DNA of 64,000 nt from Bacteroidales bacterium (GTDB taxonomy: Bacteria > Bacteroidota > Bacteroidia > Bacteroidales > UBA12077). Below, piece by piece: positions 13,982 through 64,000 of this stretch. How positions within the stretch are numbered: the stretch's first letter is position 1; every line of letters starts with the position of its first letter. The notes under the pieces were generated by a model. It was not told where the DNA came from. It saw only the letters and a program-made list of their open reading frames with translations, and did no database searches. The DNA lies in assembly GCA_019038645.1 (NCBI GenBank), contig JAHOYT010000011.1, positions 63,909 to 127,908 of the forward strand. The letters run 5' to 3'. The position numbers and the translations under genes were made by a program.

Positions 13982-14001
13982 AAAGAGAAAAATTATTAAT
14001 T

Positions 14002-14523
14002 ATGAAACGCGAAGAGAAAGATATCATAGTTAACAACCTGGTTGATCAGCTTAAAGGTTCACCTCATTTTTATCTTACTGATGCAAGCGAGCTAAATGCA
14101 GAAGCGACTAGCTTATTAAGAAGAAAATGTTTTGCGAGTGAGATTAAAATGATTGTTGTTAAGAATACCCTTTTAAAAAGAGCATTAGAACTTACTGATT
14201 ACAAAGTTGATGAGTTATATGATGTTTTAAAGGGAGCTACATCGATAATGTTTACTCAAACCGGTAATGGCCCGGCTAAATTGATTAAAGAATTTCGTGA
14301 GAAATTTGAAAAACCATTAATTAAAGCTGCTTATGTAGAAGAGTCAGTTTATATTGGTGATGATCAGTTAGAAGCATTAGTAAATGTTAAATCTAAAGAA
14401 GAATTACTTGGTGATTTAATTGCATTGTTGCAATCACCTGTTAAAAAAGTAATATCTCAATTAAAATCAGGAAATAATATCCTGGCTGGTGTTATTGAAA
14501 CACTTTCAGACAAAAAAGAATAA
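14002..14523 (+). CDS. rplJ: 50S ribosomal protein L10
   Basis: Conserved position between rplA and rplL; 173 aa; typical L10 N-terminus. Confidence 0.93.
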   Translation: MKREEKDIIVNNLVDQLKGSPHFYLTDASELNAEATSLLRRKCFASEIKMIVVKNTLLKRALELTDYKVDELYDVLKGATSIMFTQTGNGPAKLIKEFREKFEKPLIKAAYVEESVYIGDDQLEALVNVKSKEELLGDLIALLQSPVKKVISQLKSGNNILAGVIETLSDKKE

Positions 14524-14563
14524 GTAAAAAAATAATTAAAATTAATTTTAAAAATAAAGAAAA

Positions 14564-14941
14564 ATGGCAGATTTAAAAGCGTTTGCAGAACAATTGGTTA
14601 ATTTAACTGTAAAAGAGGTAAATGAATTAGCAGACATATTAAAAGAAGAATATGGTATTGAGCCTGCAGCTGCAGCTGTTGCAGTAGCTGGTCCTGCAGC
14701 TGGCGGAGAAGCTGGTGGAGAAGCTGAAAAAACTGAATTTGATGTGGTTTTAAAAGCACCGGGTGGAGCTAAATTACAAATCGTTAAGCTTGTTAAAGAA
14801 TTAACTGGTTTAGGATTAAAAGAAGCTAAAGAAGTTGTTGATAGCGCACCAAAAGCAATTAAAGAAGGCGTTTCAAAAGAGGAAGCAGATTCACTTAAAC
14901 AACAATTAGAAGAAGCAGGAGCAGAAGTTGAACTTAAATAG
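14564..14941 (+). CDS. rplL: 50S ribosomal protein L7/L12
   Basis: Ala-rich hinge ([20 protein letters not shown]) followed by [21 protein letters not shown]. Confidence 0.97.
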
Positions 14942-14967
14942 GATTGATCTAACATACTAGCTTACAG

Positions 14968-15005
14968 GGTTTGGAATCTCATTCAATGGGATTCTAAGCC
15001 TTTTT
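14968..15005 (+). terminator. rplL-rpoB intergenic attenuator hairpin
   Basis: About 13-bp stem with G-U pairs (GGTTTGGAATCTC / GGGATTCTAAGCC) followed by TTTTT. Confidence 0.6.
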
Positions 15006-15045
15006 ATTATCTTAAGTGTTTGAGTTCAATTAATTTTATAAGTCA

Positions 15046-49855: not shown

Positions 49856-50242
49856 TTAGTTGTTTTCAGCCCCTTCTTCTATCCATTTAAGAAGATAAGC
49901 TAATTCTAAAGGAGTATATGGATTACTACCCGGATGACCTAAATAGACTTTAACAAATAATTCACTTGATTCAGGATCGTTAGTATTAATGTAACCACCA
50001 TTAATTAAATTATCATATGCGCTACCGGTGATTAAAACAGGATTGGTTATAGAATGACAGGATATACATTTATCCTGAAAAACAGGTTCAATTTGTGCAG
50101 AAAAACTAATAGGGTCTGCAGGATCGTCAGGGTCATCAGGTAGCTCAGGTAACTCCCTTACAATTGGTTCAACTATCTTGTATTCACACGAAGTAATAAA
50201 GATAAAAACTAATCCTAAAATAATTAATAGACTCTTTTTCAT
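49856..50242 (-). CDS. Monohaem c-type cytochrome lipoprotein, paralogue 2 (Pro/Asp-rich linker)
   Basis: Lipobox FITSC, PELPDDPDDPADP linker, single CISCH, C-terminal LLKWIEEGA. Clearly paralogous to 49189-49542. Confidence 0.7.
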   Translation of the reverse strand: MKKSLLIILGLVFIFITSCEYKIVEPIVRELPELPDDPDDPADPISFSAQIEPVFQDKCISCHSITNPVLITGSAYDNLINGGYINTNDPESSELFVKVYLGHPGSNPYTPLELAYLLKWIEEGAENN

Positions 50243-50262
50243 TCTGGTATCTTTTAAAAATA

Positions 50263-50294
50263 AAGAAGTTGCTTAGATAACTAAGCAACTTCTT
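50263..50294 (-). terminator. Hairpin between the hexahaem gene and monohaem paralogue 2 (terminator or attenuator)
   Basis: AAGAAGTTGCTTAG-ATAA-CTAAGCAACTTCTT (14 bp). A T-rich tract follows on the minus strand. A degenerate copy lies at about 49566-49600, upstream of paralogue 1. Confidence 0.6.
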
Positions 50295-50311
50295 AAATAG
50301 GTTCAGTTTTT

Positions 50312-51433
50312 TTATAATGTTGCAGCTAATGTAATAGTGTTATCTAATAAAGTGATAATGTAATCCGGGTTGTGAATTCCAAGACTCTGATCTTCTGCAA
50401 TAATTAAATAGTTAAATACACATCTTCCTAGATCTGCAGCAACAGGATTGTCGCTATATCCACCATATCCTGCGCCCATTGCATGATATCCTACAGTGTC
50501 TATGGTCTCTACATGTTCTCCTAAAGTTTCGTTCCATACTGTTTCAGTTTCGGTGTCAGGATCCAAACCTCCTAATAATGCTAATGTTCTTCCTAAGCTA
50601 GTTAATTTGCCTTCAACCTCATCCTGAATTGCTTCAAGTTTATCTTCAATGTCACTATGGCAAGTAGTACAAGCAGACTCATCCAAAGCTAATGTGTGGT
50701 TACCTTCGTTCATGTGGCAAGTAATACAATCATGACTGAATGATGCTGATGGATCGAATGCTCCTGTTGGGTATCCGGTACCTACTTCAACTCCTCCTTG
50801 AGAATTTAATATATTTCCTTGTGGTCCATGGTGTGGTCCCCAATAATGAGATAAAGGTACATCAGCTGTAGAAGTAGCACTTGGTGCGCCTGTAGGATTA
50901 CGTGATTGGTGACACTGTACACACATGTTAACATCGTCCATATCTTCAAATTCACCTGAAGCAACATCTGTATTATCAATACCTAAAATTGTTTCAGTTA
51001 CCTGATCTGTAAAAGTTAATCCCCAGTCTGTTGCATCATTGGCTGTATGAATAGGGTGGCAAGCTTTACAACTAATTGCAGATTGATCAGTTAGGGCTAA
51101 ATCAAAAATTTCATCAGCAGAAGTAAAATCCATACGAGCTAAAAATCCTTCAGTACTGTGACATCCTGAACAGTCTCCACTTCGGGAAAAATATGTTCCT
51201 AATGAATGAGCAGATTCGTTGAATTGATCAACTTTAACATCATATTCGGTACCTTCATTATGGCAAGCCATACAAACAGCAGTACCATCACCACCGGTAG
51301 CCCCATCGACGCCGTCGACTCCGGCAATACCGTCAGTACCATCAATACCATCAATACCTGCAGGTCCTTCACAAGACATGAAGATTGCTCCAAAAAGGAA
51401 CAAAATACTTAATAATTTAATTAAATTTTTCAT
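50312..51433 (-). CDS. Hexahaem cytochrome c lipoprotein with N-terminal collagen-like Gly-X-Y repeat
   Basis: Lipobox FMSC. GPAGIDGIDGTDGIAGVDGVDGATGGDGT (9 G-X-Y triplets). CMACH, CSGCH, CKACH, CVQCH, CITCH, CTTCH. Confidence 0.8.
   Translation of the reverse strand: MKNLIKLLSILFLFGAIFMSCEGPAGIDGIDGTDGIAGVDGVDGATGGDGTAVCMACHNEGTEYDVKVDQFNESAHSLGTYFSRSGDCSGCHSTEGFLARMDFTSADEIFDLALTDQSAISCKACHPIHTANDATDWGLTFTDQVTETILGIDNTDVASGEFEDMDDVNMCVQCHQSRNPTGAPSATSTADVPLSHYWGPHHGPQGNILNSQGGVEVGTGYPTGAFDPSASFSHDCITCHMNEGNHTLALDESACTTCHSDIEDKLEAIQDEVEGKLTSLGRTLALLGGLDPDTETETVWNETLGEHVETIDTVGYHAMGAGYGGYSDNPVAADLGRCVFNYLIIAEDQSLGIHNPDYIITLLDNTITLAATL
51281..51367 (-). repeat. Coding triplet repeat for the collagen-like G-X-Y tract of the hexahaem lipoprotein
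   Basis: Residues 23-51 of the CDS. This DNA repetitiveness also generates the spurious ORFs 51199-51393(-) and 51206-51412(+). Confidence 0.8.
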
Positions 51434-51517
51434 AGAGTATTTAAGTTTTGATTGAGTTTATAATTCTTTTGCCAATGTAGTTATACTTCTATATATTTGC
51501 TATTTCTTAGCATTGAT

Positions 51518-51533
51518 TGTTATTTAAATAACA
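51518..51533. promoter_or_regulatory. 16-bp perfect palindrome flanked by direct TTGATT repeats
   Basis: TGTTATTTAAATAACA, with TTGATT at 51513-51518 and 51535-51540. Lies in the divergent region between the hexahaem operon and the Crp/Fnr gene. Confidence 0.3.
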
Positions 51534-51578
51534 GTTGATTATAATCGATCTTTAGAACATTTAACATCAATTTACGTA

Positions 51579-51592
51579 TTGATATATATCAA
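51579..51592. promoter_or_regulatory. Perfect FNR/CRP-type box TTGAT-N4-ATCAA
   Basis: TTGATATATATCAA, centred about 62 nt upstream of the Crp/Fnr ATG (51648) and about 152 nt from the hexahaem gene start (51433). Confidence 0.55.
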
Positions 51593-51647
51593 TAAAGAAA
51601 TTAAGATTTGTATATCTTATTATGTACTTTTCAAAACTCAAAAATTA

Positions 51648-52343
51648 ATGATGGATTTAAATGCTAAGATATCGTGCAAAAATTGTAAACACGGCTGGGG
51701 AAATTTTAAAAATTTAACCGCTAAAGAACTTGAAATAGTAAATGAAAACAGATTTCAGGCTAATTTTCAGGCCGGGGAAATAATTTTTAAACAAGGCTCT
51801 CCTGTATCAAATGCAGTTTTTTTAATAAATGGAATGGCAAAAATATATATAGAGGGTTTTGATAAGAAAAGAATGATGGTGGGTATTGCTAAACCAAAGG
51901 CTTTAATTGCCGGACCGGGTACTTTTGTTGATGATAGACATCATTATTCTGTTGCTGCATTAACTGATGTTACAGCATGTTTTATTAAAATGGATGTTCT
52001 TAAGGATTTTGTGAATACTAATGGTAAATTTGCCGAAGGATGGTTGCGGGATATAAGTCAAAAAGCATTAGGAACGTTTTATAAATTTTTAAGTCACACG
52101 CAAAAAAAAATGCATGGTCGTTTGGCCGAGACATTATTGTATTTAGCTGATGAGGTTCACAATTCAGATGATTTTACGATGCTTTTATCAAGGCAAGAAT
52201 TAGGCGAATTGTCCGGAATGGCTAAAGAAAGTGTTGTTCGGATATTGAAAGATTTAGCACAAGATAATATTATAGAAGATAAATGTCCCCATATTAAAAT
52301 CCTGAATAGGAAAAAGCTTCAAATGATTTCAAATATGGGTTAA
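51648..52343 (+). CDS. Crp/Fnr-family transcriptional regulator
   Basis: cNMP-binding-like beta-roll (FQAGEIIFKQGSPVSNAVFLINGMAKIY) and C-terminal HTH (SRQELGELSGMAKESVVRILKDL). N-terminal CKNC. ATG at 51648. Confidence 0.85.
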   Translation: MMDLNAKISCKNCKHGWGNFKNLTAKELEIVNENRFQANFQAGEIIFKQGSPVSNAVFLINGMAKIYIEGFDKKRMMVGIAKPKALIAGPGTFVDDRHHYSVAALTDVTACFIKMDVLKDFVNTNGKFAEGWLRDISQKALGTFYKFLSHTQKKMHGRLAETLLYLADEVHNSDDFTMLLSRQELGELSGMAKESVVRILKDLAQDNIIEDKCPHIKILNRKKLQMISNMG

Positions 52344-52349
52344 TATGTA

Positions 52350-55300
52350 ATGTATAAAATAAAAATTAAGTTTATGAAAAAGAAAAGTATCTTTCTGTTT
52401 ACTCCTTGGTTTATGGGAGTTTTGTTTATAGTGTTTGCGATGTCAATGGCTTTTGCAACATTTTATGAAAACGATTTTGGTGCAGTTGCGGCCAAAACAT
52501 TAGTTTATAACACTAAATGGTTTGAATTGTTAATGCTTTTAATGGTAATTAATCTTACCGGACAGGTATTTCAGTTTAAGTTATACAAAAGAAAGAAACT
52601 TACTATTTTACTATTTCACGCCGCCTTTGTTTTAATGATAATTGGTGCCGGAATTACACGTTATTTTGGGTTTGAAGGCGTTGTTCATATTCGTGAAAAT
52701 GATTCTCAAAATATTTGTACTTCAACAGATCAGTATTTGCAATTTAATGTTAGTAATTTAGACGGAAATGTTCTTTTTTCCGATTCAAAGAAATTATCTA
52801 TAACATCTGTAAAACAAGAAAAATATCATCAAGATGTAAAAATAGATGATGTAGATTATTCATTAAAATTTACTAACTATTTGACTAATGCAGTAGAGTC
52901 GATAGTTAATGTTGAAAATGGAGAACCTATGGTTTCTGTTTTAATATCAAGAGGAATGATGGGACGACAAACTATATTTTTGAAAAAAGGTGAAATTAAA
53001 AATGTGGGTGGAATTATGTTTGGTTTTGGCGAAGATGATTCTGTTGATGTGAGAATTACTATTCAGGATGATGCATTCAAAATACAATCGGAATATCCCA
53101 TTAGCGAAATAAGCATGATGTCGCAAAAAGCAACTATTCATGAACAAGGTGAAGCCATTCCGTTTGAAACTATGAAAATTTACCAGGTTAAAGGTTTATC
53201 TATTGTAGCTGAAGTGTTAAGCAAAAGTGGGGTTGTTAAAGTGGTAAATGCAGATTCCAAAACAAATACAACAAATAAAAGTGCTTTGGTTTTTGAATTG
53301 GTTCACGGAAATAAATTAACTGAATTAATTCTATTGAGAGCGCCGGGAATAAATAATACTACTAGATTTATTAATGGGGAGCATTCTATTGAGGTAAGCT
53401 ATAGTTCATTAGAAGTAGAATTACCGTTTAGCTTAAAGTTGGAAGATTTTATACTGGAAAGATATCCTGGTTCAAGTAGCCCTTCATCCTATAAGAGTGA
53501 TGTTGTATTAATAGATGAAAAGGAGGGTGTAAATATGCCTTATTCTATTTATATGAATCATATATTAAAATATAAGGGTTGGAGATTTTATCAATCGTCA
53601 TACGATCAGGATGAAAGAGGAACAATTTTATCTGTGAACAGAGATTTTGCAGGAATGTTTGTTACATATGTCGGATATTTTATATTATTCTTATTTATGG
53701 TACTATCATTGATTAATAAAAATTCAGCTTTTCGAACAGTTACTAAAAACTTTTTTAGATCAACTTCAGGTAAAGTAGTCAGTTTATTATTTTTATTTCT
53801 AAGTTCTTCATTACTGGCAAGTTCTCAAAATCAGAAATTAGTAGTACCCAAATCTCTTTCCAATGAGTTTGGAAAAGTATTAGTTCAGAATCAGAAAGGA
53901 AGAACTGAACCTATTTACGCTTTAAGCAACGATATTTTAAGAAAAGTAACCAAAGAAACAGAATTCGACGGGTATTCACCAATGCAGGTGTTTTTAGGAT
54001 TCTATTTTGATTTTCATAACTGGCAAAAGGTTCCGTTAATTAAAATTTCTAATGTTGATGTAAAAAAAGCAATTGGTATTAATGGAGATTATGCTGCATT
54101 TTCAGATATTGTTGATTTGCAGGAAAATAGTTATAAATTAAAACAATATGTGGATGCTGCTTATGCAAAGCCATCAGGAGCCAGAAATAAGTTTGATAAG
54201 GAAATTATTAAAGTAGATGAGCGCTTGAATATTTGCTTCATGATTTACTCAGGTGAGTTCATGAAAATATTACCGGTTAAAGATCATTCAATGAAATGGC
54301 ATTCACCAAAAGATGCTTATACATTTGTTGCAAACGCTGATGATTCACTGTACTTAAGAAATATTGTTGGTTTATTTGCTCAGGGAGTTGATATAGCGAA
54401 TACCTCTGGTGATTATACTCAGGCTAATGAAACTTTAAAATCAATAATTAATTATCAGAGAAATTTTGCGCAATATGAATTGCCGGATACAAGAAAGGTA
54501 AATGCGGAAATACTCTATTATAAATCCAAAATTTATGATAAACTTTTCCCTTTTTATGCTTCTATTGGATTGCTTCTTTTATTTATTCTGCTTTATGGAA
54601 TAATATCTCAGAACAAAAATCTTGGACTAATAATTAAAATTTTTACAGGACTTCTTATTGTAGGTTTTGTTTTTCATACAATGGGATTGACTATTCGATG
54701 GTATGTTTCGGGCCATGCACCAATGAGTAATGGTTATGAATCAATGATTTTTATTTCCTGGGTAACTATATTGGCCGGATTCTTTTTTGGTAAGCGATCT
54801 TCATTTGTTTTGGCTGCAACATCTGTTTTAGGTGGTTTTACACTTATGGTAGCACATTTAAGTTTTATGGATCCACAAATAACAAATCTGGTTCCGGTGT
54901 TGCAATCTTATTGGTTAACAATTCACGTTTCTGTTATTACAGGTAGCTACGGATTCTTAGGTTTAGGTGCTATAATAGGAATTATTGTACTAATTCTTTA
55001 TTCAATGATCTCGGAAAGTAATAAAGCAAATATATTATCAACAATAGAAGAGCTAACAATTATTAATTACAAAGCATTGACTATTGGCTTATATCTTCTT
55101 ACTATCGGAACTTTTCTGGGAGCTATTTGGGCTAATGAATCATGGGGCAGATATTGGGGTTGGGATCCAAAAGAAACATGGTCGTTGATTACAATTATTG
55201 TTTATAGTTTTGTTATTCACTCCAGAATGATAAAGGAATTAAAAGGATTTTATGCTTTTAATGTAATTTCATTATTTGCATTCTCTTCTGTGTTAATGAC

Positions 55301-55463
55301 CTATTTCGGTGTGAATTATTATTTGTCAGGATTACACTCATATGCGGGTGGAGATCCTGTGCCTGTACCTAAGTTTGTTTATGTAAGTATTTTCCTATTA
55401 GTTTCACTATCGATATTGGCTTACCAGAGATACAGGAAAATTTTATTAACAAATACAAAATAG
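52350..55463 (+). CDS. ccsBA: Fused system II cytochrome c synthase CcsBA (ResB + CcsA)
   Basis: N-terminal ResB-like TM and periplasmic domain. C-terminal CcsA with WWD motif WGRYWGWDPKETWS and conserved His. 1037 aa. Alternative start at 52374. Confidence 0.88.
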   Translation: MYKIKIKFMKKKSIFLFTPWFMGVLFIVFAMSMAFATFYENDFGAVAAKTLVYNTKWFELLMLLMVINLTGQVFQFKLYKRKKLTILLFHAAFVLMIIGAGITRYFGFEGVVHIRENDSQNICTSTDQYLQFNVSNLDGNVLFSDSKKLSITSVKQEKYHQDVKIDDVDYSLKFTNYLTNAVESIVNVENGEPMVSVLISRGMMGRQTIFLKKGEIKNVGGIMFGFGEDDSVDVRITIQDDAFKIQSEYPISEISMMSQKATIHEQGEAIPFETMKIYQVKGLSIVAEVLSKSGVVKVVNADSKTNTTNKSALVFELVHGNKLTELILLRAPGINNTTRFINGEHSIEVSYSSLEVELPFSLKLEDFILERYPGSSSPSSYKSDVVLIDEKEGVNMPYSIYMNHILKYKGWRFYQSSYDQDERGTILSVNRDFAGMFVTYVGYFILFLFMVLSLINKNSAFRTVTKNFFRSTSGKVVSLLFLFLSSSLLASSQNQKLVVPKSLSNEFGKVLVQNQKGRTEPIYALSNDILRKVTKETEFDGYSPMQVFLGFYFDFHNWQKVPLIKISNVDVKKAIGINGDYAAFSDIVDLQENSYKLKQYVDAAYAKPSGARNKFDKEIIKVDERLNICFMIYSGEFMKILPVKDHSMKWHSPKDAYTFVANADDSLYLRNIVGLFAQGVDIANTSGDYTQANETLKSIINYQRNFAQYELPDTRKVNAEILYYKSKIYDKLFPFYASIGLLLLFILLYGIISQNKNLGLIIKIFTGLLIVGFVFHTMGLTIRWYVSGHAPMSNGYESMIFISWVTILAGFFFGKRSSFVLAATSVLGGFTLMVAHLSFMDPQITNLVPVLQSYWLTIHVSVITGSYGFLGLGAIIGIIVLILYSMISESNKANILSTIEELTIINYKALTIGLYLLTIGTFLGAIWANESWGRYWGWDPKETWSLITIIVYSFVIHSRMIKELKGFYAFNVISLFAFSSVLMTYFGVNYYLSGLHSYAGGDPVPVPKFVYVSIFLLVSLSILAYQRYRKILLTNTK

Positions 55464-55527
55464 GAAAATTACAAAGCTATTAATCTATTGAATATCAGAT
55501 AAGCATTATTTTATATATGATATTGTA

Positions 55528-55726
55528 AAGAGGGTGTCCAAAAAGTAGTAGAACTGTCATTGCTCACTTCGCTCGTGAGAGAAGTTCCCTTGATTATGCC
55601 TGACTTCCTTCGGCAGTTAAACCGGCAGGCAGGAAAGGGAATCTCTTATTAGACAGTAATACAGGTTAATATGAGATCTCCAATCGAGTTGGAGATGACA
55701 AATAGTGATTTTTTGGACACCCTCTT
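55528..55726. repeat. 199-bp intergenic element bounded by a perfect 17-bp inverted repeat, with internal hairpins (MITE-like element or structured RNA)
   Basis: AAGAGGGTGTCCAAAAA (55528-55544) and its exact reverse complement (55710-55726). Internal stems CTCAC..GTGAG and ATCTCCAA-TCGAG-TTGGAGAT. GC-rich core CGGCAGTTAAACCGGCAGGCAGG. Confidence 0.6.
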
Positions 55727-55825
55727 GCTTTTAAACAATTAAGAAGTAATAATAGATATAATTTTGCCTGGTTAGTTTGTAAATGAAATGCTTATTAAAT
55801 ATTTGGCAAACAAAATAATACAAAA

Positions 55826-56521
55826 TTAACCTGTTTCACTTATTCTTTTTAAACGGTTGTAATCAATTATTTTGAGTTTCTTCCCTTCAATTTCAATTAA
55901 TTTATCTTCTTTAAACTTTTTTAGCATTCTTATAACAGTTTCTGCACTCATCGTCGATAATTCCGCAATATCTTTGCGTGACAATACCAAATCAAACTCT
56001 CTTTCTTTAAAAACTCTGTCAGACAAACACAAAATAATATCAGCTAATCTTCCGTATGATTGTTTGTGAGTAAGACAAAAAAAGCGACTATTAATTTGAA
56101 CACTTTTTGCACTTAAGATATCAATAATGCTTTTTGCAAAGCCAGAATTCTTATTTAGTAATTTTCTGAAAGCTACAACATTAATTTGATTTACTATAGT
56201 ATCCACATAAGCCATTGCTGAATATTGAAAAGTAGTATATTCTTCATTAACTGAAGTTAGTCCAAGCATGCTTCCTTCGGGAATCATTTTTAAAACTAAA
56301 GAATTAATCCCGTCATCAATATAAACTTTAATCAACCCACTCTCAACAGACATGATGTGTGATGCATAACTCCCTTGTTTGCATATAATCTCTCCCTTTT
56401 TGTATTTTATCTTTACTGTATTCTCATCCAGAAATTTCGTTTCTTTTTTATTCAATTTATCAAAACATATACAGGGATCTAAACTTATAGTACAACCCGA
56501 ATATTGAATTTCCTTCGCCAT
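55826..56521 (-). CDS. Crp/Fnr-family transcriptional regulator (Cys-rich N-terminus)
   Basis: N-terminal C10/C17/C19 (GCTISLDPCIC), cNMP-like beta-roll, C-terminal HTH (SRKDIAELSTMSAETVIRMLKKF). Confidence 0.85.
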   Translation of the reverse strand: MAKEIQYSGCTISLDPCICFDKLNKKETKFLDENTVKIKYKKGEIICKQGSYASHIMSVESGLIKVYIDDGINSLVLKMIPEGSMLGLTSVNEEYTTFQYSAMAYVDTIVNQINVVAFRKLLNKNSGFAKSIIDILSAKSVQINSRFFCLTHKQSYGRLADIILCLSDRVFKEREFDLVLSRKDIAELSTMSAETVIRMLKKFKEDKLIEIEGKKLKIIDYNRLKRISETG

Positions 56522-56559
56522 ATCTTAATATTATCGTTTGAATTGCAAATATACACAAA

Positions 56560-56579
56560 TCAGTTTTAAAACTGATTCA
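56560..56579. promoter_or_regulatory. Perfect 20-bp palindrome in the divergent regulator / decahaem promoter region
   Basis: AATCAGTTTTAAAACTGATT, between the Crp/Fnr gene (start 56521) and the decahaem gene (start 56712). Confidence 0.4.
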
Positions 56580-56711
56580 CATCATGTATAAAAATGCATC
56601 GAATCATATTTTTTTATTGCGCATGGCTACCCCAAAAACTTTGCCAGTTCTGGGGAAACGCTCATCTTTATACTCAAATAAAAAAGTCTTTTATATTATA
56701 ATATTAATAAC

Positions 56712-58067
56712 ATGAAAAACAAATTCGCCAAACCAGGTTTTTTGATTTTAATAGCAGTTTTAATTGGAATAAACTACAGTTGTTCTAATAAAACAATTGA
56801 GGTATTTGAAGAAAAAATGACTGTTGCATCCTGTGAAGGATGTCATATTAACTATGCACATTTACAGGAAATATATACACCTGATACTGCTGCTCCGGCA
56901 GGAGGTTGCGGTGGAGAAGCTCCTCATTATGAGCCTTATGATAGAGTTTACATGGGAGGTGCGGGTTACGCTGATTTTAAAAAAACAGTACATTATAACA
57001 TGGGCTGTATTGCCTGTCATAACGGAACTGATAACACATCAGATAAAGATGTAGCTCATTCCGGCGATTTTATTTCTCATCCTTCGCTGTATTATGAAGA
57101 AAAATGCGGTGATTGTCATGACGAAATCACTAATAACTATGTGACAAGTATTCATAACGGAACAGGCCAAAAAAGAGCAGTTACGATGCGAAGCGGTTTA
57201 AGTGGTGCTGAAGAATTTGATCTGTTACCTGAACATCAAATTGAAGGTTATAATGCTAATTGTGCTACTTGCCATGGTACTTGCGGAAATTGTCACGTTT
57301 CCCGACCTGCAATTGCTGGTGGTGGTCTTTCAAATGGCCATGCTTTTACTAAAACTCCTGATATGGTAGACATTTGTATTAGTTGCCATACATCAAGAGG
57401 CGGGCATGCCTATTTAGGTGTAGCAATAGGAACTGTGCCTGATGCACACTTAACAAATAATGGATATGATTGTATGGATTGTCATACCGGTGCAGAATTA
57501 CATGGCGATGGAAATCCGGTAGATCAAAGATATGCATATAGTGAATTACCTACATGTGATAAATGCCATACTGATATTGCAACTGAAAACGATTACCATT
57601 CTATGCATTATGATGATTTCAATTGCCAGGTTTGTCACTCGCAGGATTATAATAATTGTGGTAGTTGCCATGTACATGGTGATGGAGCACGTGTTCCATC
57701 GTATTTAGGATTTAAAATTGGGGTTAACCCGATTCCTGATATTAAAACTGATTTCAACTTTGTATTATTGAGAAGAACTTTGGCTGCACCTGATAATTGG
57801 AAAGAATATGGAGTTGAAAGTTATGCCAACTTTGATGTTTTACCAACATATAATTATACCTCACCGCATAATATTTTAAGATGGACAACCAGAACCCAGG
57901 TTGATGGATCTGATTGTACAACAAGCTGCCATATCAGAGATGAGGATGGAGTATTAATCAATAAGGAATTATACTTATTTCAGGAGGATTTAGTAGAAGA
58001 CTGGGAATTAAGCGCAACAACTGGAATTACGGTTGATGGGAAATTACCTGGAACATGGACAAAATAA
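56712..58067 (+). CDS. Decahaem (10 CxxCH + 1 CxxxCH) cytochrome c lipoprotein
   Basis: Lipobox NYSC. CEGCH, CIACH, CGDCH, CATCH, CGNCH, CISCH, CMDCH, CDKCH, CQVCH, CGSCH, plus CTTSCH. Confidence 0.8.
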   Translation: MKNKFAKPGFLILIAVLIGINYSCSNKTIEVFEEKMTVASCEGCHINYAHLQEIYTPDTAAPAGGCGGEAPHYEPYDRVYMGGAGYADFKKTVHYNMGCIACHNGTDNTSDKDVAHSGDFISHPSLYYEEKCGDCHDEITNNYVTSIHNGTGQKRAVTMRSGLSGAEEFDLLPEHQIEGYNANCATCHGTCGNCHVSRPAIAGGGLSNGHAFTKTPDMVDICISCHTSRGGHAYLGVAIGTVPDAHLTNNGYDCMDCHTGAELHGDGNPVDQRYAYSELPTCDKCHTDIATENDYHSMHYDDFNCQVCHSQDYNNCGSCHVHGDGARVPSYLGFKIGVNPIPDIKTDFNFVLLRRTLAAPDNWKEYGVESYANFDVLPTYNYTSPHNILRWTTRTQVDGSDCTTSCHIRDEDGVLINKELYLFQEDLVEDWELSATTGITVDGKLPGTWTK

Positions 58068-58113
58068 ATAAATTAATCAATAAATATGTTTTACAAAAAT
58101 TAAAATTATTATT

Positions 58114-59079
58114 ATGAAAAACACAAAAATTTTATTATTAAGTATTTTATCAGCTTTTTTATTCTTTGCATCTTGTGATGACGATGATCCGGTAGTAAAT
58201 GAATCTGAAGTTCTTGTTGAATATCTTGAAACAACAGGAGGAACAGTAGTTAATACTTTCCCTGTTATGATTAAAACATCAGATGTAAATACGGGAAATT
58301 TAACTGAAGCGGATCAATATGTTATTGATATCAGATCTGCCACAGATTATGCAACAGGACACATTGAAGGAGCTGTTAATGTTGCAGCTGGAGAAGTCCT
58401 TGCACATTATGAAGCAAATAACCTGGAAAGTTATACAACTGTTGCTATTGCTTGCTATAGTGGCCAATCTGCAGGATGGGTAAACGGACTGTTATACACA
58501 ATGGGTTACACGAATACAAAAGACATGAAATGGGGAATGTGTGGTTGGAATGAAACAACTTCCGGATCATGGACATCTAATATTGGTAATAATTATGCTT
58601 CTGCTTTAGTTACTGATGTTACTGCAAAAGCTGAAGAAGGAAGTCTTCCAAAATTAAGCACAGGGGTAACTGATGCTGAAGATATTTTAAGAGCAAGAGT
58701 TGAGGCTGTTTTTGCTGAAGGCTTTAGTGAAGCTGCAGTTTCGGCTTCTACTGTTTTTACTACACCAGACGATTATTATATTGTTAATTACTGGAGCGAA
58801 GATCATTACAGCTGGGGTCATATCCCGGGAGCAATTCAATATAGTCCGGGAGCTACTTTAACTTCAGATACTTTCCTTAAGACTCTTCCAACTGACAAGC
58901 CTATTGCAGTTTATTGCTATACTGGTCAGACATCAGCTCACGTTGCTGCTTATTTACGAGTTTTAGGATATGACGCAAAATCAGTTAAATTTGGTGTTAA
59001 TGGAATGTCTTATGATGCTATGCCAGGAACTAAGTTTATAGAAGAGACTGATGTTCATGATTATGAATTAGTTCAATAA
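58114..59079 (+). CDS. Tandem-rhodanese-domain lipoprotein
   Basis: Lipobox FFASC. Two rhodanese active-site loops, CYSGQSA and CYTGQTS, each preceded by a GHI(E/P)GA motif. Confidence 0.8.
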   Translation: MKNTKILLLSILSAFLFFASCDDDDPVVNESEVLVEYLETTGGTVVNTFPVMIKTSDVNTGNLTEADQYVIDIRSATDYATGHIEGAVNVAAGEVLAHYEANNLESYTTVAIACYSGQSAGWVNGLLYTMGYTNTKDMKWGMCGWNETTSGSWTSNIGNNYASALVTDVTAKAEEGSLPKLSTGVTDAEDILRARVEAVFAEGFSEAAVSASTVFTTPDDYYIVNYWSEDHYSWGHIPGAIQYSPGATLTSDTFLKTLPTDKPIAVYCYTGQTSAHVAAYLRVLGYDAKSVKFGVNGMSYDAMPGTKFIEETDVHDYELVQ

Positions 59080-59101
59080 TAATATTGAAAATACTATTAT
59101 G

Positions 59102-59134
59102 AAAAGAGATTGCACATTTGCAATCTCTTTTTTT
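59102..59134 (+). terminator. Rho-independent terminator after the rhodanese gene
   Basis: AAAAGAGATTGCA-CATT-TGCAATCTCTTTT plus a T-run. Confidence 0.8.
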
Positions 59135-59180
59135 AGTATTAACTATTTATAATAACAAATAATTTTTGAGCTTCAATATT

Positions 59181-59894
59181 CTATAAACCTAAAAACTCTA
59201 TACTTATTCCGCAAAGAAATATGGTTGCTCCGGCAATGGCATGCATATATCTTTCCATATTTAATTTTGGCAAAAATTTAAATCCATATAATGATGTTGT
59301 TACCACAAGCATCATTGTTCCAACAGTAGCAGTACTGAAAATAACAGTAACCATAATTATATCCAAAACATTGTTTTGAGCAGCCGGGTAAAGCAGAACC
59401 GGGATGAATGGTTCACACGGACCAAATATGAAAATTGTAAACAGAACCCAGGGTGTTAATTCCTTAATGCTTTTTTTTTCGTGAACATGTGAATGTTCTT
59501 TGAAATGTGAATGTTTATGAATATGAACTTTGCCATTGGCATGTGCGTGTTCATGTGAATGTTCTTTTTGTTTGTAAGCCTTACGTAATCCCCAGATAAA
59601 ATAAACCAAACCAAATGCGATCATCAGCCAGGCAGCAACAGAGCCGCGTGTAGCTTCAATGGGAGTGAGTTTATTCACGGCAATTCCCAGTAAAACACCA
59701 ATAAAACCAATTAAAATAGAACTAGCAACATGACCAATACCACAAATAAAAGTAATAAGGTTTGTTTTCCACATGGACCATTTACGCGCCCTGGACATTA
59801 CAATAAATGGAATATAATGATCAGGCCCCAAAAGGGTATGAAAAAATCCTATTGAGGCTGCTGTTAGGTAAAGGATGCTTGAATCTATTTGCAT
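59181..59894 (-). CDS. Ni/Co transporter-like membrane protein with His-rich loop (NicO/RcnA-like)
   Basis: 6 TM helices. Central loop KEHSHEHAHANGKVHIHKHSHFKEHSHVHEKK. N-terminal FFHTLLGPDH motif. Confidence 0.55.
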   Translation of the reverse strand: MQIDSSILYLTAASIGFFHTLLGPDHYIPFIVMSRARKWSMWKTNLITFICGIGHVASSILIGFIGVLLGIAVNKLTPIEATRGSVAAWLMIAFGLVYFIWGLRKAYKQKEHSHEHAHANGKVHIHKHSHFKEHSHVHEKKSIKELTPWVLFTIFIFGPCEPFIPVLLYPAAQNNVLDIIMVTVIFSTATVGTMMLVVTTSLYGFKFLPKLNMERYMHAIAGATIFLCGISIEFLGL

Positions 59895-59904
59895 GTTTAC
59901 GGTT

Positions 59905-60042
59905 TAAATTCCAAATTACAAAGAGCAACTTTCAAACCCGCCTGCCGGACGGGCAGGTAAAAACCAAAAATCAATTTTTAAAACAGATTTGTATTAAGTT
60001 ACTTTATGGTTTTGAGTTTTTGATATTGAGGTTTGGAATTTA
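59905..60042. repeat. 138-bp intergenic element bounded by an 11-bp inverted repeat, with a GC-rich central hairpin
   Basis: TAAATTCCAAA (59905-59915) and TTTGGAATTTA (60032-60042). Internal CCTGCC-GGACG-GGCAGG hairpin. Confidence 0.45.
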
Positions 60043-60074
60043 TTTGTTTATTGTGATTTGATATTTGTTATTTC

Positions 60075-60482
60075 TTACAGATACTTTTTATCTTCTTCGG
60101 GAACGTCAAAATATTGTTTGTAATGATTAGCATCAGGGCCAATTTGCTCAATGCTTTTATCACTGATTTTATAGGTGCATTTTTCACCTGCTAAACTTGA
60201 AAAATATACTTCGAAATGTTCATCTCCATCTTTCATGTGAATTTTAACAAGGTGAGGATTTTCTTCACGGTTTAATGTTGCATGACAGATTGGACATGAG
60301 AATACGTATTCTTCTCCTTCATGAATCTGAAAAGTAGGGTGAGTAGTAATTGCATAATCGCCAATTTCAGAGTTCAGAAAGACTAAACCCTTTTCGTTCT
60401 TTTTTGATTTTGCTGATAACAATATGGAGTTTGTTACTCGTAATTGTCCCTTGCAAATCGGACAGAAATAATCTTTTGCCAT
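60075..60482 (-). CDS. Hypothetical protein with two CPIC (CxxC) knuckles
   Basis: FCPICKG at residues 6-12 and SCPICHA at residues 62-68; 135 aa; 12 nt downstream of the hydrogenase maturation protease gene. Confidence 0.5.
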   Translation of the reverse strand: MAKDYFCPICKGQLRVTNSILLSAKSKKNEKGLVFLNSEIGDYAITTHPTFQIHEGEEYVFSCPICHATLNREENPHLVKIHMKDGDEHFEVYFSSLAGEKCTYKISDKSIEQIGPDANHYKQYFDVPEEDKKYL

Positions 60483-60494
60483 AGTATTCGGGTT

Positions 60495-60941
60495 TTAATG
60501 GTTTATAATATTTAAAATATTGCATGCTGTTTCCATTACAATTTCCGAAATTTCTTCACCAAAATCAATATTTTTTGGTTGAATACCTAAAATAAATACC
60601 GGCATTTTAAATAATTCTGATATTCTTTTTAGTGAAATATTATGTGTATTTAAAGTAAAATCTTTTACTTTTTCAGCAGGGAGTAATTCGTAATATCCCG
60701 CTTGTTTGCCAAACTCAACACAGTCAACAAGTATAAGAACATCAGGACTTAATGAATTTATTTTACCAATATAATTTTCGATACTAATTTCAACGCTTAA
60801 CTTTTGAATTGATGATGAATCCTTTATATTATCACAAATATAAACACCTATTCCATCATCACTTTTTAAAACATTTCCAATCCCAACAAAGAGTTTCTTT
60901 TTATCCGGTTGTGTTATTAAACTGTTTAAGTTTTCAATCAC
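60495..60941 (-). CDS. [NiFe]-hydrogenase maturation endopeptidase (HycI/HybD family)
   Basis: FVGIGNVLKSDDGIG N-terminal motif and a later VDC.. region. 148 aa. 4-nt overlap with the upstream 4Fe-4S gene. Confidence 0.75.
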   Translation of the reverse strand: MIENLNSLITQPDKKKLFVGIGNVLKSDDGIGVYICDNIKDSSSIQKLSVEISIENYIGKINSLSPDVLILVDCVEFGKQAGYYELLPAEKVKDFTLNTHNISLKRISELFKMPVFILGIQPKNIDFGEEISEIVMETACNILNIINH

Positions 60942-61552
60942 TCAAAAGTGTATTTAATTAAAACTTCTCTTAAGCAATTCGGACATAGAACATTAAACAT
61001 ATCCTTCCTTTTTAGTCCGTCTCTGATATCAGATTCAATATCGGATTTAGAAGCTAAACGCAGTTTTTCGTTAAGTAAATTTAAATTCTGAATTGAGGCA
61101 AAAGCTTTTGGTCCGAGCTTTTTATGCATATATTGAAGATGATCTTTTGTTGTAACTACAGCACTACAATTTTTGCAAATTATCAGTTCTTTTTCCTGAT
61201 ACTCCACATTATTTGTCCTGTCGAAAACGGCAATGTCGAATATTTCATCAGATAGTTTTACACCTTTTTGTGTAATGCAGTGATCCTGACATTGTCCACA
61301 GAAAATACATTTTCCATAATCGCGCCTGATGGTACGAATTCCTTTTACTTTATCATCTTCGAATGTAATTGCCAATGGAGGACAAACATTTGCACAAGTT
61401 TCACATCCCACACAATTATTATCATCAACCACAGGTTTGCCTCTGAAATTTTCGAAAGGAGTATGTGGTTCCTTTGGGAACTTTGTTGTGTAAGCTGGTG
61501 AAAACAATGACACCAACGCTTCTTTTACTTCTCTTATTTTAGGATATCTCAT
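60938..61552 (-). CDS. 2x[4Fe-4S] ferredoxin-type subunit (NuoI/HycF/MbhN-like) with Cys-rich C-terminal extension
   Basis: CVGCETCANVCP and CIFCGQCQDHC, plus C-terminal CKNC ... CPNC. Confidence 0.75.
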   Translation of the reverse strand: MRYPKIREVKEALVSLFSPAYTTKFPKEPHTPFENFRGKPVVDDNNCVGCETCANVCPPLAITFEDDKVKGIRTIRRDYGKCIFCGQCQDHCITQKGVKLSDEIFDIAVFDRTNNVEYQEKELIICKNCSAVVTTKDHLQYMHKKLGPKAFASIQNLNLLNEKLRLASKSDIESDIRDGLKRKDMFNVLCPNCLREVLIKYTFE

Positions 61553-61640
61553 TTTAGTTCAAAGTTTTGAGTTTTGAGTTTTGAGTTTCGAGTTTAGCGT
61601 TTCGAGTCATAATAACTCTGAACTTTAAACTCTGAACTTT
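61553..61640. repeat. Intercistronic heptamer tandem repeat with complementary arm, between mnhG and the 4Fe-4S gene
   Basis: GTTTTGA x3, then GTTTCGA, GTTTAGC, GTTTCGA (61564-61605). Followed by AACTCTG AACTTTA AACTCTG AACTTTT. Confidence 0.6.
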
Positions 61641-61967
61641 TTAACTTTTAATTACATCTTTATAATCATCTTTTACACTTTTATCGCCTAATTTAATCCC
61701 GAATATATAAGCTCCCTTAACAAGAGCATGTGCTGCTACAGTAGCGCTTAAAAATAACAATGGTAGAGCTATTAAGGCTCTGACACCTGCTCCGGCAAAA
61801 CCGCAAAAAAACAAAACCCCTAATAGTATACTGCATGTTCCAAGTGTAACACACTTTGTTGCTGATTGTAACCGGTTGTAAACATCTGGTAGACGTATTA
61901 AACCTATGCAACCAAAAAGGTTAAATAGTATACCTACACATATTAATATGAAGCCTATTATTTCCAT
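61641..61967 (-). CDS. Mrp-type cation/proton antiporter subunit G (MnhG/MbhC-like)
   Basis: IGLIRLPDVYNRLQSATKCVTLG signature; 3 TM helices. Confidence 0.8.
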   Translation of the reverse strand: MEIIGFILICVGILFNLFGCIGLIRLPDVYNRLQSATKCVTLGTCSILLGVLFFCGFAGAGVRALIALPLLFLSATVAAHALVKGAYIFGIKLGDKSVKDDYKDVIKS

Positions 61968-61968
61968 G

Positions 61969-62235
61969 TTATTCGTTTAATTTCTTGCCACTTAAATATT
62001 TAGCTAAGGTTAAAGTTCCAATAAAACTTAAAATAATCCATGCAATACCAATATCAAGTATATATGATCTTTTGGTTGTGATGGTTAATATGGCGCATAT
62101 TCCAACCACCAGAATTCCGAAGATATCTATTCCAACCATCCTGTCGGCAATTGATGGCCCACGAATTATTCTATAAAGGCAGAAAACGCATAATGCAATT
62201 TGCACATAAAGTAATATGTTCAGATAATCTATCAT
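61969..62235 (-). CDS. Mrp-type antiporter subunit F (MnhF/MbhB-like)
   Basis: RIIRGPSIADRMVGID signature; 88 aa; 3 TM helices. Confidence 0.8.
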   Translation of the reverse strand: MIDYLNILLYVQIALCVFCLYRIIRGPSIADRMVGIDIFGILVVGICAILTITTKRSYILDIGIAWIILSFIGTLTLAKYLSGKKLNE

Positions 62236-62717
62236 TCGAATATTTTTTTAATATATTTTTCAAATCTTCCTGATACTTTATCACTATATTCTTCAGGATC
62301 ATCAGTGCTAATATAAATCCAGTGAACATAAATATAATCGTCGATAATATCGACAGTAATTGTTCCTGGCGTCATTGTTATGGAGTTAGCTAAAGTTGTT
62401 TTTGCAATATCTGTTTTTAAATCAGTTTTTATTTTAACAATTCCAGGTTTTATTGGCATGGCTGGATGCAAAACTCTGTACGCAACTTCTATATTCGCTT
62501 TTAAACATTCCCAGATGAATATTATTAAATATACAATAAACCAAAAATACCTTTGTGGCTGAAGAAACTTATAAATACTGGTTACAAAGAATTTTCCGAA
62601 AAGAATAGTTGTAGCGAGTGCCGCTACAATTCCAACAATGATATTGGATGTTGTTAAACTGAAGGTTAATAACAACCAGAATATAAGCGAGATTATGAAT
62701 AGTGCAATATATTTCAT
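62232..62717 (-). CDS. Mrp-type antiporter subunit E (MnhE/MbhA-like)
   Basis: 161 aa, 2-3 N-terminal TM helices, motif ANSITMTPGT. Position upstream of the F and G subunits. Confidence 0.75.
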   Translation of the reverse strand: MKYIALFIISLIFWLLLTFSLTTSNIIVGIVAALATTILFGKFFVTSIYKFLQPQRYFWFIVYLIIFIWECLKANIEVAYRVLHPAMPIKPGIVKIKTDLKTDIAKTTLANSITMTPGTITVDIIDDYIYVHWIYISTDDPEEYSDKVSGRFEKYIKKIFE

Positions 62718-62718
62718 G

Positions 62719-64000
62719 TTAATACTTTATTACCAGGTTAAGATATTCATCTAAATTGATTAAAGAGTTTACCGCCTGATCAAAAACTACTTCACGAACA
62801 CTCGGTATTGCCAAAACACTTAATCCAAGACACAGGATTACAAGAATGATCATGGAAAAACTCATGGTAAAAGGTACTTCTTTAATATCCCTGAAATTTT
62901 TGTTTTTTCCATAGAAAACAGATTTCTGGAATTTTAAAAAATATGCAAGAGTTATAATACTTACCATTACTGCAAGAAATGCCAATAAGTAAAATTTGGC
63001 CTGAACAGCAGCTATAATAATAATTAACTTACTAAAGAACCCGTTAAATGGTGGAATCCCGGATATTGACATGGATGCACCCAGCGAGGAAGTTGATGTA
63101 ATTGGCATATTTTCAGCCAAACCACCCAACTGGTTCATATCCCGTGTGTTTGTTCTGTATTCAATTGCTCCGGCATTAAGGAATAATAATCCTTTAAATA
63201 CTGAGTGGTTTACCATGTGAAATAAACTTCCGGAAATTGCTAAAACAGCAACACCTTCTTTTCCACCTTTGGATAATACCATCATTCCTATTCCAAATCC
63301 AAGAATAATATAACCTATTTGACTGATACTTGAGTAGGCGAGGAGTCGTTTTATATCCCACTGATTTATTGCTAATACCGATCCAATAATCATTGAAAGT
63401 GTTCCCAAAACTGTAATAACAACAGCAATCTCATATGTAAACTCGAACATGTTAAAGAATAATCGAATTAATACATAAACCCCTATTGCTTTAATCAGAA
63501 CGCCCGAAAGCATTGCCGATACAGGCGATGGTGCTGATGAGTGTGCATCGGGTAACCAGGCATGGAAAGGAATTATTGCTGCTTTTAATCCGAATCCGGT
63601 TATTAATAGTATTTGTGTAAATGTTAAGAAAACAGAATCATCATGAGTTTGAAGTACATCGGAAATATCAGCAATATTTAAAGTTTTTGTTTGCCAGTAT
63701 AACAACGCTATGCTAAATAATATCAGGAAAGATGCAATATTTCCCAGAACCTGATATTTAAATGATGCTTCCAGTTCATTTTTACCCACACCAAAAGCTA
63801 CTAAGGCATAGGATGCAATTACCGAAATTTCGAGGAAGACAAACATATTGAAAAGATCGCCACTTAAAACAACACCATTCATACCGGCAATCATTAAACA
63901 AAACAGAGCGTAAAAATTATTTTCGGATGTGTATTTACTTATATAAGAAATTGAATAAAATGCTACCAAGAATCCAATGATACTGATAATGCATAAAATT
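62719..64000 (-). CDS. Mrp subunit D / NuoM-NuoN-like proton-conducting membrane subunit (5' end outside window)
   Basis: Proton_antipo_M-like motifs: FHAWLPDAHSSAPSPVSAMLSGVL, LLAYSSISQIGY. The frame stays open to the window edge. Confidence 0.8.
   Translation of the reverse strand, partial: ILCIISIIGFLVAFYSISYISKYTSENNFYALFCLMIAGMNGVVLSGDLFNMFVFLEISVIASYALVAFGVGKNELEASFKYQVLGNIASFLILFSIALLYWQTKTLNIADISDVLQTHDDSVFLTFTQILLITGFGLKAAIIPFHAWLPDAHSSAPSPVSAMLSGVLIKAIGVYVLIRLFFNMFEFTYEIAVVITVLGTLSMIIGSVLAINQWDIKRLLAYSSISQIGYIILGFGIGMMVLSKGGKEGVAVLAISGSLFHMVNHSVFKGLLFLNAGAIEYRTNTRDMNQLGGLAENMPITSTSSLGASMSISGIPPFNGFFSKLIIIIAAVQAKFYLLAFLAVMVSIITLAYFLKFQKSVFYGKNKNFRDIKEVPFTMSFSMIILVILCLGLSVLAIPSVREVVFDQAVNSLINLDEYLNLVIKY

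Follow-up and report, generated by a model that had tools for sequence, protein, structure and literature searches.

A multihaem cytochrome, a two-site rhodanese and a Cys-rich Fnr-like regulator form a widespread cassette: a candidate extracytoplasmic reductase of sulfane sulfur

Sulfur and polysulfide reduction without a molybdoenzyme gained a molecular basis only in 2026, with the description of MccSep in Geobacter. MccSep (ExtKL, GSU2937-2936 in Geobacter sulfurreducens) is a periplasmic pentahaem selenoprotein whose selenocysteine (Sec) and haem-ligating cysteine reduce polysulfide and, less well, selenite; its gene cluster also encodes a rhodanese-like lipoprotein, ExtH (PMC13510729). 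Dethiobacter alkaliphilus reduces sulfur and thiosulfate while lacking Psr/Phs and Dsr, and encodes, beside rhodanese genes, a multihaem protein (DealDRAFT_1917) that is mis-annotated as a thiosulfate sulfurtransferase (PMC10376724). Here we analyse a locus where a multihaem cytochrome and a rhodanese are also neighbours. It lies in a stretch of 64,000 nucleotides (nt) from a Bacteroidales bacterium (assembly GCA_019038645.1, contig JAHOYT010000011.1, positions 63,909 to 127,908), hereafter the window. We show that a Cys-rich Fnr-like regulator, a lipoprotein cytochrome with probably 11 haems and a rhodanese lipoprotein with two active sites make up the cassette of a widespread and unstudied enzyme family. 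With moderate confidence, we propose that this cassette encodes a molybdenum-independent extracytoplasmic reductase of sulfane sulfur, either polysulfide or derived from S0, for which selenite may be a further substrate. Its central features are, in window coordinates:

55826-56521, minus strand: gene for a Crp/Fnr-family regulator of 231 amino acids (aa), from its open reading frame (ORF) and Pfam matches
56712-58067, plus strand: gene for a lipoprotein multihaem c-type cytochrome of 451 aa, from its ORF and motif positions
56907-56909, plus strand: TGC codon of C66 in the cytochrome motif A-G-G-C-G-G-E, the only cysteine outside the lipobox and the haem motifs
57915-57932, plus strand: CTTSCH (CX3CH) of the cytochrome, a probable eleventh haem site, with C402, C406 and H407 invariant in alignments A1-A3
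58114-59079, plus strand: gene for a tandem-rhodanese lipoprotein of 321 aa, from its ORF and Pfam Rhodanese matches in two stretches
59101-59132, plus strand: intrinsic terminator closing the two-gene operon (14-bp stem, 4-nt loop, T-run)

A previous reading of the window, made from the sequence only, had placed the three ORFs at these same coordinates, with a gap of 46 nt between the cytochrome and rhodanese genes and a strong terminator after the pair, and all of this agrees with what we find.

The association between the two lipoproteins is the best-documented property of the system. A pattern-limited scan of one genome per species found relatives of the cytochrome in at least 418 genomes, the best 80 of which were read in detail. 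These 80 are all metagenome-assembled genomes of Bacteroidota (Bacteroidales, Marinilabiliales, Prolixibacteraceae, Lentimicrobiaceae, Salinivirgaceae, Tenuifilaceae) from anoxic habitats, and the hosts are anaerobes of sediments, cold seeps and sulfidic caves. When the neighbours at these loci were analysed with tblastn and ORF clustering, the rhodanese gene was directly downstream of the cytochrome gene in 77 of the 80 species, the exceptions being cut contigs. A Crp/Fnr gene accompanies the pair in 71 loci, almost always upstream and divergent, and no other gene recurs in more than five. Four longer contexts show the same three genes within variable flanks. The pair is also found outside Bacteroidota. 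In Ignavibacteriota (Melioribacteraceae) the cytochrome is 48-53% identical, keeps all motifs and has the rhodanese adjacent, under a PAS-sigma54 activator instead of a Crp/Fnr protein. Relatives occur on more than 600 metagenome contigs, and 70 of the 80 best ones read have the Sec form described below; among Sec-type loci with enough downstream DNA, the rhodanese follows the cytochrome in 39 of 52 and precedes it in most of the other 13. Hence, the pair is syntenic far beyond this genome, a point on which the sequence-only reading might have failed. In more distant lineages the cytochrome and the tandem rhodanese are even fused, with the multihaem domain first (P0286, 652 aa; P0305, 715 aa), which is strong evidence that the two work together physically. 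Chance is an unlikely explanation for the cassette, since dozens of orthologues keep the haem motifs, C66 and the cysteines of the rhodanese and the regulator with little or no variation, and the gene order holds in about 80 species.

The second major result concerns C66. Many remote homologues of the cytochrome in the representative library have an abrupt start, at the residue that aligns with position 71-75 of the window protein. We fetched 80 metagenome loci using such truncated proteins as query, and translated the DNA in frame upstream of each match. In 70 of them an in-frame TGA lies in a G-x-G-U-G-G-x motif aligned exactly with A-G-G-C66-G-G-E, and the upstream frame remains open across the first CxxCH motif and a signal peptide or lipobox. 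GGCGG stands at this place in five others, and the remainder stop at contig ends. Most TGA loci have a predicted hairpin 12-15 nt after the UGA (mean z of -1.2, versus -0.6 for the same stretch of Cys forms), whose register is shifted by one codon between clades. A UGA aligned with Cys, coding sequence on both of its sides and a downstream hairpin are thus all found. The aligned TGA and the continuing frame in particular identify the cytochromes as a predicted selenoprotein family, of which the window protein would be a Cys form. In a maximum-likelihood tree, all 22 Cys forms, including the window protein and sequences named Bacteroidales and Melioribacteraceae by their sources, make up one clan (support 100/99) set among 55 Sec forms, so that a single Sec/Cys switch suffices to explain their distribution. 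Two histidines mark the Cys clade: H72, present in 19 of the 22 and replaced by Pro in Sec forms, and H232, present in 21 and replaced by variable residues. This pattern is the one expected if both activate the thiol that would have replaced the selenol. A cultured organism, Desulfovibrio ferrophilus, has an annotated relative (P0259/P0491; WP_126378598.1, BBD08475.1) that starts just past the aligned Sec position, a truncation which, as judged from the protein annotation only, is of the type typical for Sec forms.

These observations invite comparison with MccSep. Both MccSep and the window cytochrome are extracytoplasmic multihaem c-type proteins in which Sec (catalytic in MccSep) is replaced by Cys in some members, and both have a rhodanese-family lipoprotein as partner. 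The scaffolds differ. MccSep has five haems; its Sec sits in a D-G-U-P loop of an Ig-like domain, and a further Cys ligates haem 2. The window cytochrome, with its 11 haem motifs, carries Cys/Sec in a G-U/C-G-G loop near the N-terminus and lacks a second free Cys. The Geobacter cluster of MccSep and ExtH includes a porin and the window cassette has none. We rejected membership of the cytochrome in the MccSep family given its 11 haem motifs, the position of Cys/Sec 25 residues after the first haem motif, the single free Cys and the lack of sequence similarity to ExtK/L-type models; MccSep was not among the Foldseek or Protein Data Bank (PDB) sequence matches either, although its presence in those databases was not checked. 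By analogy, the window family would repeat the logic of MccSep on a scaffold of 11 haems that is unrelated to it, and would be tied to the rhodanese far more closely, in some members covalently.

The sequence-only reading had called the cytochrome a decahaem protein. Its ten CxxCH motifs, exactly that number, are there, as is the CTTSCH near the C-terminus (residues 402-407), alongside the lipobox Cys24 and C66. The total, however, needs revision. All haem motifs are invariant across 103 aligned homologues, and the position of the CX3CH reads CxxCH in many distant relatives and CNHCH in the fusion proteins P0286 and P0305. Together with the invariance of C402, C406 and H407, this makes the CX3CH a probable eleventh haem site and the protein probably an undecahaem cytochrome. 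The last haem motif lies in the C-terminal part, which is haem-poor and beta-rich. Outside the motifs, only nine histidines are universal across Sec and Cys forms (H94, H116, H148, H210, H246, H264, H296, H299, H386), while M218 is nearly invariant. Nine histidines and one methionine for eleven haems would leave at least one haem lacking a conserved His or Met distal ligand, and this haem may be open or ligated by the Cys/Sec itself. R229, three residues past the sixth haem motif, is also universal in both forms.

How does this protein relate to characterised multihaem cytochromes? A first AlphaFold run with 43 close homologues gave a pLDDT of 46 and was discarded; a second one, with 103 sequences and Ignavibacteriota-level diversity added, reached a pLDDT of 83 and a pTM of 0.79. 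Searching the PDB with the single sequence gave no match. A profile of 32 diverse members gave matches confined to stretches rich in haem motifs, the best being OTR (1sp3, E 1.6e-13 over about 100 residues), followed by GSU1996, the undecahaem S-layer cytochrome of Carboxydothermus (6qvm), MtrA and OcwA (6i5b). Foldseek found nothing for the model in the PDB at E <= 0.001; its best match was MtrA (6r2q_A, E 0.15, TM 0.22/0.34), and OTR was not among its matches at E <= 10. In an NCBIfam scan the ExtM model scored only 17.9 bits against a cut-off of 800, and there was no OTR match. We thus set aside the OTR family (eight haems and a Lys-ligated active-site haem), to which the 1sp3 profile matches are only local, the MtrA/MtrC-type conduits, whose barrel gene has no recurring counterpart beside the pair, and the MccA, NrfA and OcwA families, for which the profile search gave haem-motif matches only and Foldseek no match at E <= 0.001. 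Of the families named for comparison in the sequence-only reading (OTR, MccA, ExtK/L and Mtr), the cytochrome fits none, and Pfam, NCBIfam, PDB and Foldseek searches place it in no family with a defined non-sulfur function. OTR of Shewanella remains of interest as a multihaem protein of similar size that acts on sulfur compounds; it has eight haems, against 11 motifs here, and no Sec/Cys loop. DealDRAFT_1917, likened to our cytochrome by description only, has been described as octahaem and Otr/SirA-related (PMC10376724).

The cytochrome has more than 1000 close homologues, nearly all unnamed or 'hypothetical', and our literature searches found no description of the family. Many homologues bear the JGI name 'thiosulfate/3-mercaptopyruvate sulfurtransferase', the same misnomer as that of DealDRAFT_1917, and the cytochrome-rhodanese fusions may account for it.

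One might argue that such a protein is simply an extracellular or periplasmic electron wire, used to reduce metal oxides or electrodes, and that the rhodanese is a mere accessory. Weak Pfam matches to c7/c3 and MtrC-domain models point this way, and so do the choice of MtrA as best (not significant) fold match, the lipoprotein anchors and the surface-export-like signals. But electron wires are not known to have a conserved nucleophile of the Sec/Cys kind or a rhodanese that is obligate and at times even fused to them, no porin accompanies the pair at the 80 loci, and the match to MtrA has the poor E value and TM scores given above. We find the wire very unlikely.

The partner protein contains two PF00581 domains (Pfam Rhodanese, E 1.7e-23, two stretches) with the catalytic loops CYSGQSA (C114) and CYTGQTS (C268), as the sequence-only reading had seen. 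The domains and the loops both assign it to the PF00581 superfamily, tandem type, and the six-residue active-site loops (CYSGQS, CYTGQT) are GlpE-type. Had these cysteines been poorly conserved, an involvement in sulfur chemistry would have been put in doubt; instead, all of 40 aligned orthologues have C114 and C268, and the catalytic cysteines are kept in 61/61 and 67/67 aligned partners of the distant (Sec-type) relatives. Two active domains are unusual, since classical TST/MPST keep the C-terminal Cys only, and the fusions P0286 and P0305 show this classical pattern. The nearest PDB match is 6mxv, a two-domain rhodanese. Sud was not among the PDB sequence matches at E <= 0.01, yet this polysulfide-sulfur transferase of Wolinella succinogenes, which feeds PsrABC, is a useful functional comparison: it is a periplasmic carrier of the rhodanese type, as the window protein would be, and the latter would also pass sulfane sulfur on to a reductase of respiration. 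Sud itself is a soluble dimer of single-domain subunits with a molybdoenzyme as partner, whereas here a two-domain lipoprotein, with both sites predicted to be active, is coupled to a cytochrome.

The location of the two lipoproteins deserves some attention. The window rhodanese has DDDD after its lipobox Cys21, and the consensus after the lipid Cys in 65 orthologues is x-K-D-(D/E)-(D/E), with K at +2 in 52, D/E at +3 in 58 and D/E at +4 in 55, which we take to fit the Bacteroidota lipoprotein export signal for surface display. That signal, said to have been described by Lauber et al. in 2016, is reportedly the lipobox Cys followed by K-(D/E)2 or by an acidic run at +2 to +5. In the cytochrome the corresponding signal is weak or mixed. 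Both proteins might thus be displayed at the surface, which would require an outer-membrane electron route not encoded in the cassette. At one Melioribacteraceae locus (L005, positions 11737-16280), a second, paralogous tandem rhodanese follows the pair, and a multihaem protein of 1163 aa bearing a Por secretion tail comes next, a hint that the system may there extend towards the surface.

Taken as a whole, we favour a reductase of sulfane sulfur working as follows. The rhodanese lipoprotein would take up zero-valent sulfur as persulfide on its two catalytic cysteines and hand it to Cys66 (Sec in most relatives), which lies in a flexible Gly-rich loop of the cytochrome. The resulting Cys-S-S(n) adduct would be reduced by electrons travelling through the 11-haem chain, probably at a haem without a conserved His distal ligand, after which sulfide would be released from the cytochrome. 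We infer the substrate, the reductive direction and the persulfide relay from the conserved residues and from the partnership of the two proteins. The sequence-only reading had suggested, with due hedging, that the pair handles sulfane sulfur, thiosulfate or chalcogen oxyanions. The present data support this view: the rhodanese cysteines are conserved, the pair is syntenic and the cytochrome matches no family with another defined function, and the fusions and the alignment of C66 with a Sec codon strengthen the case for sulfur or chalcogen chemistry. The sulfur context of the cassette is modest. At L074 (positions 6733-8569) and at three further loci, the cassette has as convergent neighbours two YeeE/PmpAB-type sulfur transporters of half size (PF04143) and an additional rhodanese with a single domain.

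Several observations sit uneasily with this proposal. No quinol dehydrogenase or other electron donor recurs with the cassette in the 80 loci. MccSep is not homologous to the cytochrome, and the analogy between them carries no sequence weight. The direction of the reaction is open to doubt, as the His/Cys-haem enzymes TsdA and SoxAX work oxidatively. The rhodanese has a surface-export-like signal in most orthologues and the cytochrome an ambiguous one, and the cassette comes with no outer-membrane conduit. Two relatives nested among Sec forms have Trp at the Sec/Cys site (P0412, G-E-G-W-G-S; P0466, L-N-W-A-G); they may be inactive or re-purposed variants, or else artefacts of sequencing or assembly, a TGG codon, if this is what they have, being one base away from TGA. 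Finally, the sequencing runs that hold the region are of DNA only, and no RNA-seq was found for this organism.

The doubt on direction leads to an oxidative alternative. The cassette could encode a thiosulfate, sulfide or polysulfide dehydrogenase, in which sulfur bound to Cys/Sec is oxidised and the electrons pass through the haems to the respiratory chain. TsdA and SoxAX have a Cys at the haem centre acting on sulfur substrates, as proposed for the window cytochrome; they are di- or tri-haem oxidative enzymes with no detected homology to it. Their hallmark is a catalytic Cys placed on a haem or next to one (PMC13510729), many of the hosts live at sulfidic interfaces, and the Tenuifilaceae locus L001 has downstream cytochrome c and NrfD-type modules. 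Against this, an electron sink is the better match for Fnr-type control and fermentative anaerobic hosts, most selenoproteins of this kind are reductases, and no Sox or oxidase genes recur with the cassette in the 80 loci. An enzyme running in the oxidative direction is therefore, in our view, improbable.

The same L001 locus bears on the nature of the substrate. Immediately upstream of its cassette (positions 4232-8981) are genes for a cysteine desulfurase, TusA, a Se/S-carrier (PF11823), a SelD-like AIRS/AIRS_C protein and NTP_transf_3. Rhodaneses are known selenium carriers, and the enzyme might reduce selenite or tellurite, i.e. chalcogen oxyanions, either for detoxification or as a source of reduced selenium; the rhodanese would then carry Se in the form of perselenide or selenotrisulfide. 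The selD, TusA, Se/S-carrier and cysteine desulfurase genes of L001 fit this idea, as does the naming of the Geobacter ExtH cluster for selenite/tellurite reduction in NCBIfam (NF040943 description), and MccSep reduces selenite too (PMC13510729). Yet the selD neighbourhood was seen at L001 alone among the loci read, which led us to reject a role in selenium assimilation, and besides the regulator no neighbour is found in more than five of the 80 loci. Selenite is scarce in sediments relative to sulfur, and the match to ExtM reached just 17.9 bits of the 800 of its cut-off. An enzyme devoted to selenite or tellurite thus seems unlikely to us.

Rhodaneses also detoxify cyanide and Fnr-type regulators respond to NO as well, which opens the way to other redox roles, such as defence against thiol or persulfide stress, reduction of peroxide or nitrogen oxides, or cyanide detoxification by the rhodanese. 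Multihaem enzymes are often promiscuous (PMC13510729). Such roles would leave the strict coupling to a two-site rhodanese unexplained, and similarity to NrfA, HAO or peroxidase folds does not go beyond the haem motifs; we think they are most unlikely.

Matches to cNMP_binding (PF00027), HTH_Crp_2 (PF13545) and Crp (PF00325) place the regulator in the Crp/Fnr superfamily. The divergent orientation and the N-terminal cysteines C10, C17 and C19 had been noted before; we confirm them and add C47, C149 and C165. Among 69 orthologues, C10 is kept in 69, C17 in 64, C19 in 67, C47 in 61, C149 in 66 and C165 in 69. The recognition helix reads AETVIRML and retains the Glu and Arg of the FNR E--SR motif. 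Escherichia coli FNR shares with this protein the Crp/Fnr fold, an N-terminal Cys cluster, the E--xR helix and a TGAT-N4-ATCA site at about -41, but FNR has CX2CX5C plus C122, whereas the window regulator has CX6CXC, no counterpart of C122 and three further conserved cysteines. We rejected an identity with FNR proper, a [4Fe-4S] O2 sensor, on the CX6CXC spacing, the absence of Cys in the C122-equivalent region and a score of 64.9 bits on the NCBIfam Fnr model NF008365, below its cut-off of 228. The cysteines could hold an Fe-S cluster or act as a thiol switch, and the signal might be O2, NO or sulfane sulfur. The features of the control region are:

56546-56553, minus strand: predicted -7-type (TAnnTTTG) promoter element of the regulator gene, CAAATATA (minus strand TATATTTG)
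56558-56577, unstranded: perfect 20-bp palindrome AATCAGTTTTAAAACTGATT, from a string match and a reverse-complement check
56573-56584, unstranded: FNR-type operator TGAT-N4-ATCA, TGATTCACATCA, overlapping the right arm of the palindrome
56640-56670, plus strand: predicted promoter of the cytochrome-rhodanese operon, with -33 TTTG at 56640-56643 and a -7-like ATCTTTA at 56664-56670

The sequence-only reading reported a perfect 20-bp palindrome between the regulator and the pair; we confirm it, with its coordinates shifted leftwards by 2 nt from those then given (56560-56579). It consists of an upstream ATCAG half-site and the left half of the FNR-type box. In a survey of 72 distinct Bacteroidota intergenic regions, TGA[TC]-N4-[GA]TCA was found in 67 and the strict TGAT-N4-ATCA in 42, against 0.6 expected in shuffles. 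The distance of the box from the ATG of the regulator is 47-66 nt throughout (median 57), while that from the ATG of the cytochrome ranges from 111 to 264 nt, and in 40 of the 72 regions an ATCA half-site lies 8-11 nt upstream of the box. In L007, the nearest of the relatives that were read, the palindrome is imperfect; the perfect 20-mer was not searched for in other loci. What is conserved as a candidate operator is the FNR-type box, and not the 20-bp palindrome with which it overlaps.

TAnnTTTG is the -7 promoter consensus of the Bacteroidota sigma factor sigma-ABfr of Bacteroides. Its complement CAAAnnTA is present in 56 of the 67 loci, in 48 of these towards the regulator gene at 33-36 nt from the centre of the box, which would put the box near -41 of the predicted regulator promoter. 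On the cytochrome side, an A(A/T/C)CTTT(G/A) element ends exactly 92-93 nt from the box in 42 of the 67 loci, with TTTG about 20 nt before it; in an ungapped consensus built from 36 loci, tTtg occupies +62 to +65 and cAAtCTTTg +84 to +92 relative to the centre of the box. From this we infer an operon promoter of the -33/-7 type, relative to which the box would lie near -98. The regulator would thus bind TGAT-N4-ATCA at about -41 of its own promoter and about -98 of the operon promoter, and switch the unit on under anoxic or sulfur-replete conditions. Between the box and the -33 element is a further conserved motif, TGCGCATGGCTAC in the window (56616-56628), with the consensus ATGACAG some 44-50 nt from the box centre in related loci. 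It is followed in many loci by a lineage-variable palindrome, e.g. TTGTTAA-N-TTAACAA, whose window equivalent is CCCCA...TGGGG. This region may be a second regulator site.

In the window, a gene adjacent to the cassette (52350-55463) encodes a 1037-aa fused ResB-CcsA (CcsBA) of system II cytochrome c biogenesis, with a second Crp/Fnr gene before it (51579-52343). We considered these as a maturation system dedicated to the CX3CH haem and rejected the idea, as tblastn found neither gene adjoining the pair in any of 86 loci; from this distribution we assign them to the cytochrome island of this genome and not to the cassette. Between ccsBA and the regulator lies a GC-richer structured element (55528-55726) bordered by the inverted repeats gagggtgtccaaaaa ... 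tttttggacaccctc; it had no Rfam match, nor had anything else in a scan of 50000-64000. On the other side, at 59181-61552 on the minus strand, are genes for a His-rich membrane protein resembling Ni/Co transporters, a zinc-ribbon protein, a maturation protease of hydrogenases (HycI-type) and a 2x[4Fe-4S] protein; Mrp-like subunits come after them. The group resembles the end of a locus for a membrane-bound [NiFe]-hydrogenase that adjoins the cassette.

The cassette points to a protein family that is different from MccSep, and much larger, built on the same chemical idea, in which a nucleophile (Sec or Cys) is combined with a chain of haems and a partner rhodanese. It might even be a second, independently evolved class of Sec/Cys-plus-haem chalcogen reductases, with 11 haems, fed by a dual-site rhodanese and possibly displayed at the surface in Bacteroidota, which would give anaerobes, both fermentative and respiratory, that do not have the molybdenum enzymes Psr/Phs an electron sink in S0 and polysulfide (or selenite). 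Since its genes are abundant in sediment metagenomes, such a class could contribute substantially, and so far unnoticed, to cryptic sulfur cycling; we offer this wider claim tentatively and with some doubt. If the proposed function is true, it would explain sulfidogenesis in organisms that have no recognised sulfur reductase, add a new selenoprotein family and correct a widespread mis-annotation of the cytochrome in JGI. The natural switch from Sec to Cys, accompanied by H72 and H232, would then provide a ready-made experiment on how Cys comes to replace Sec.

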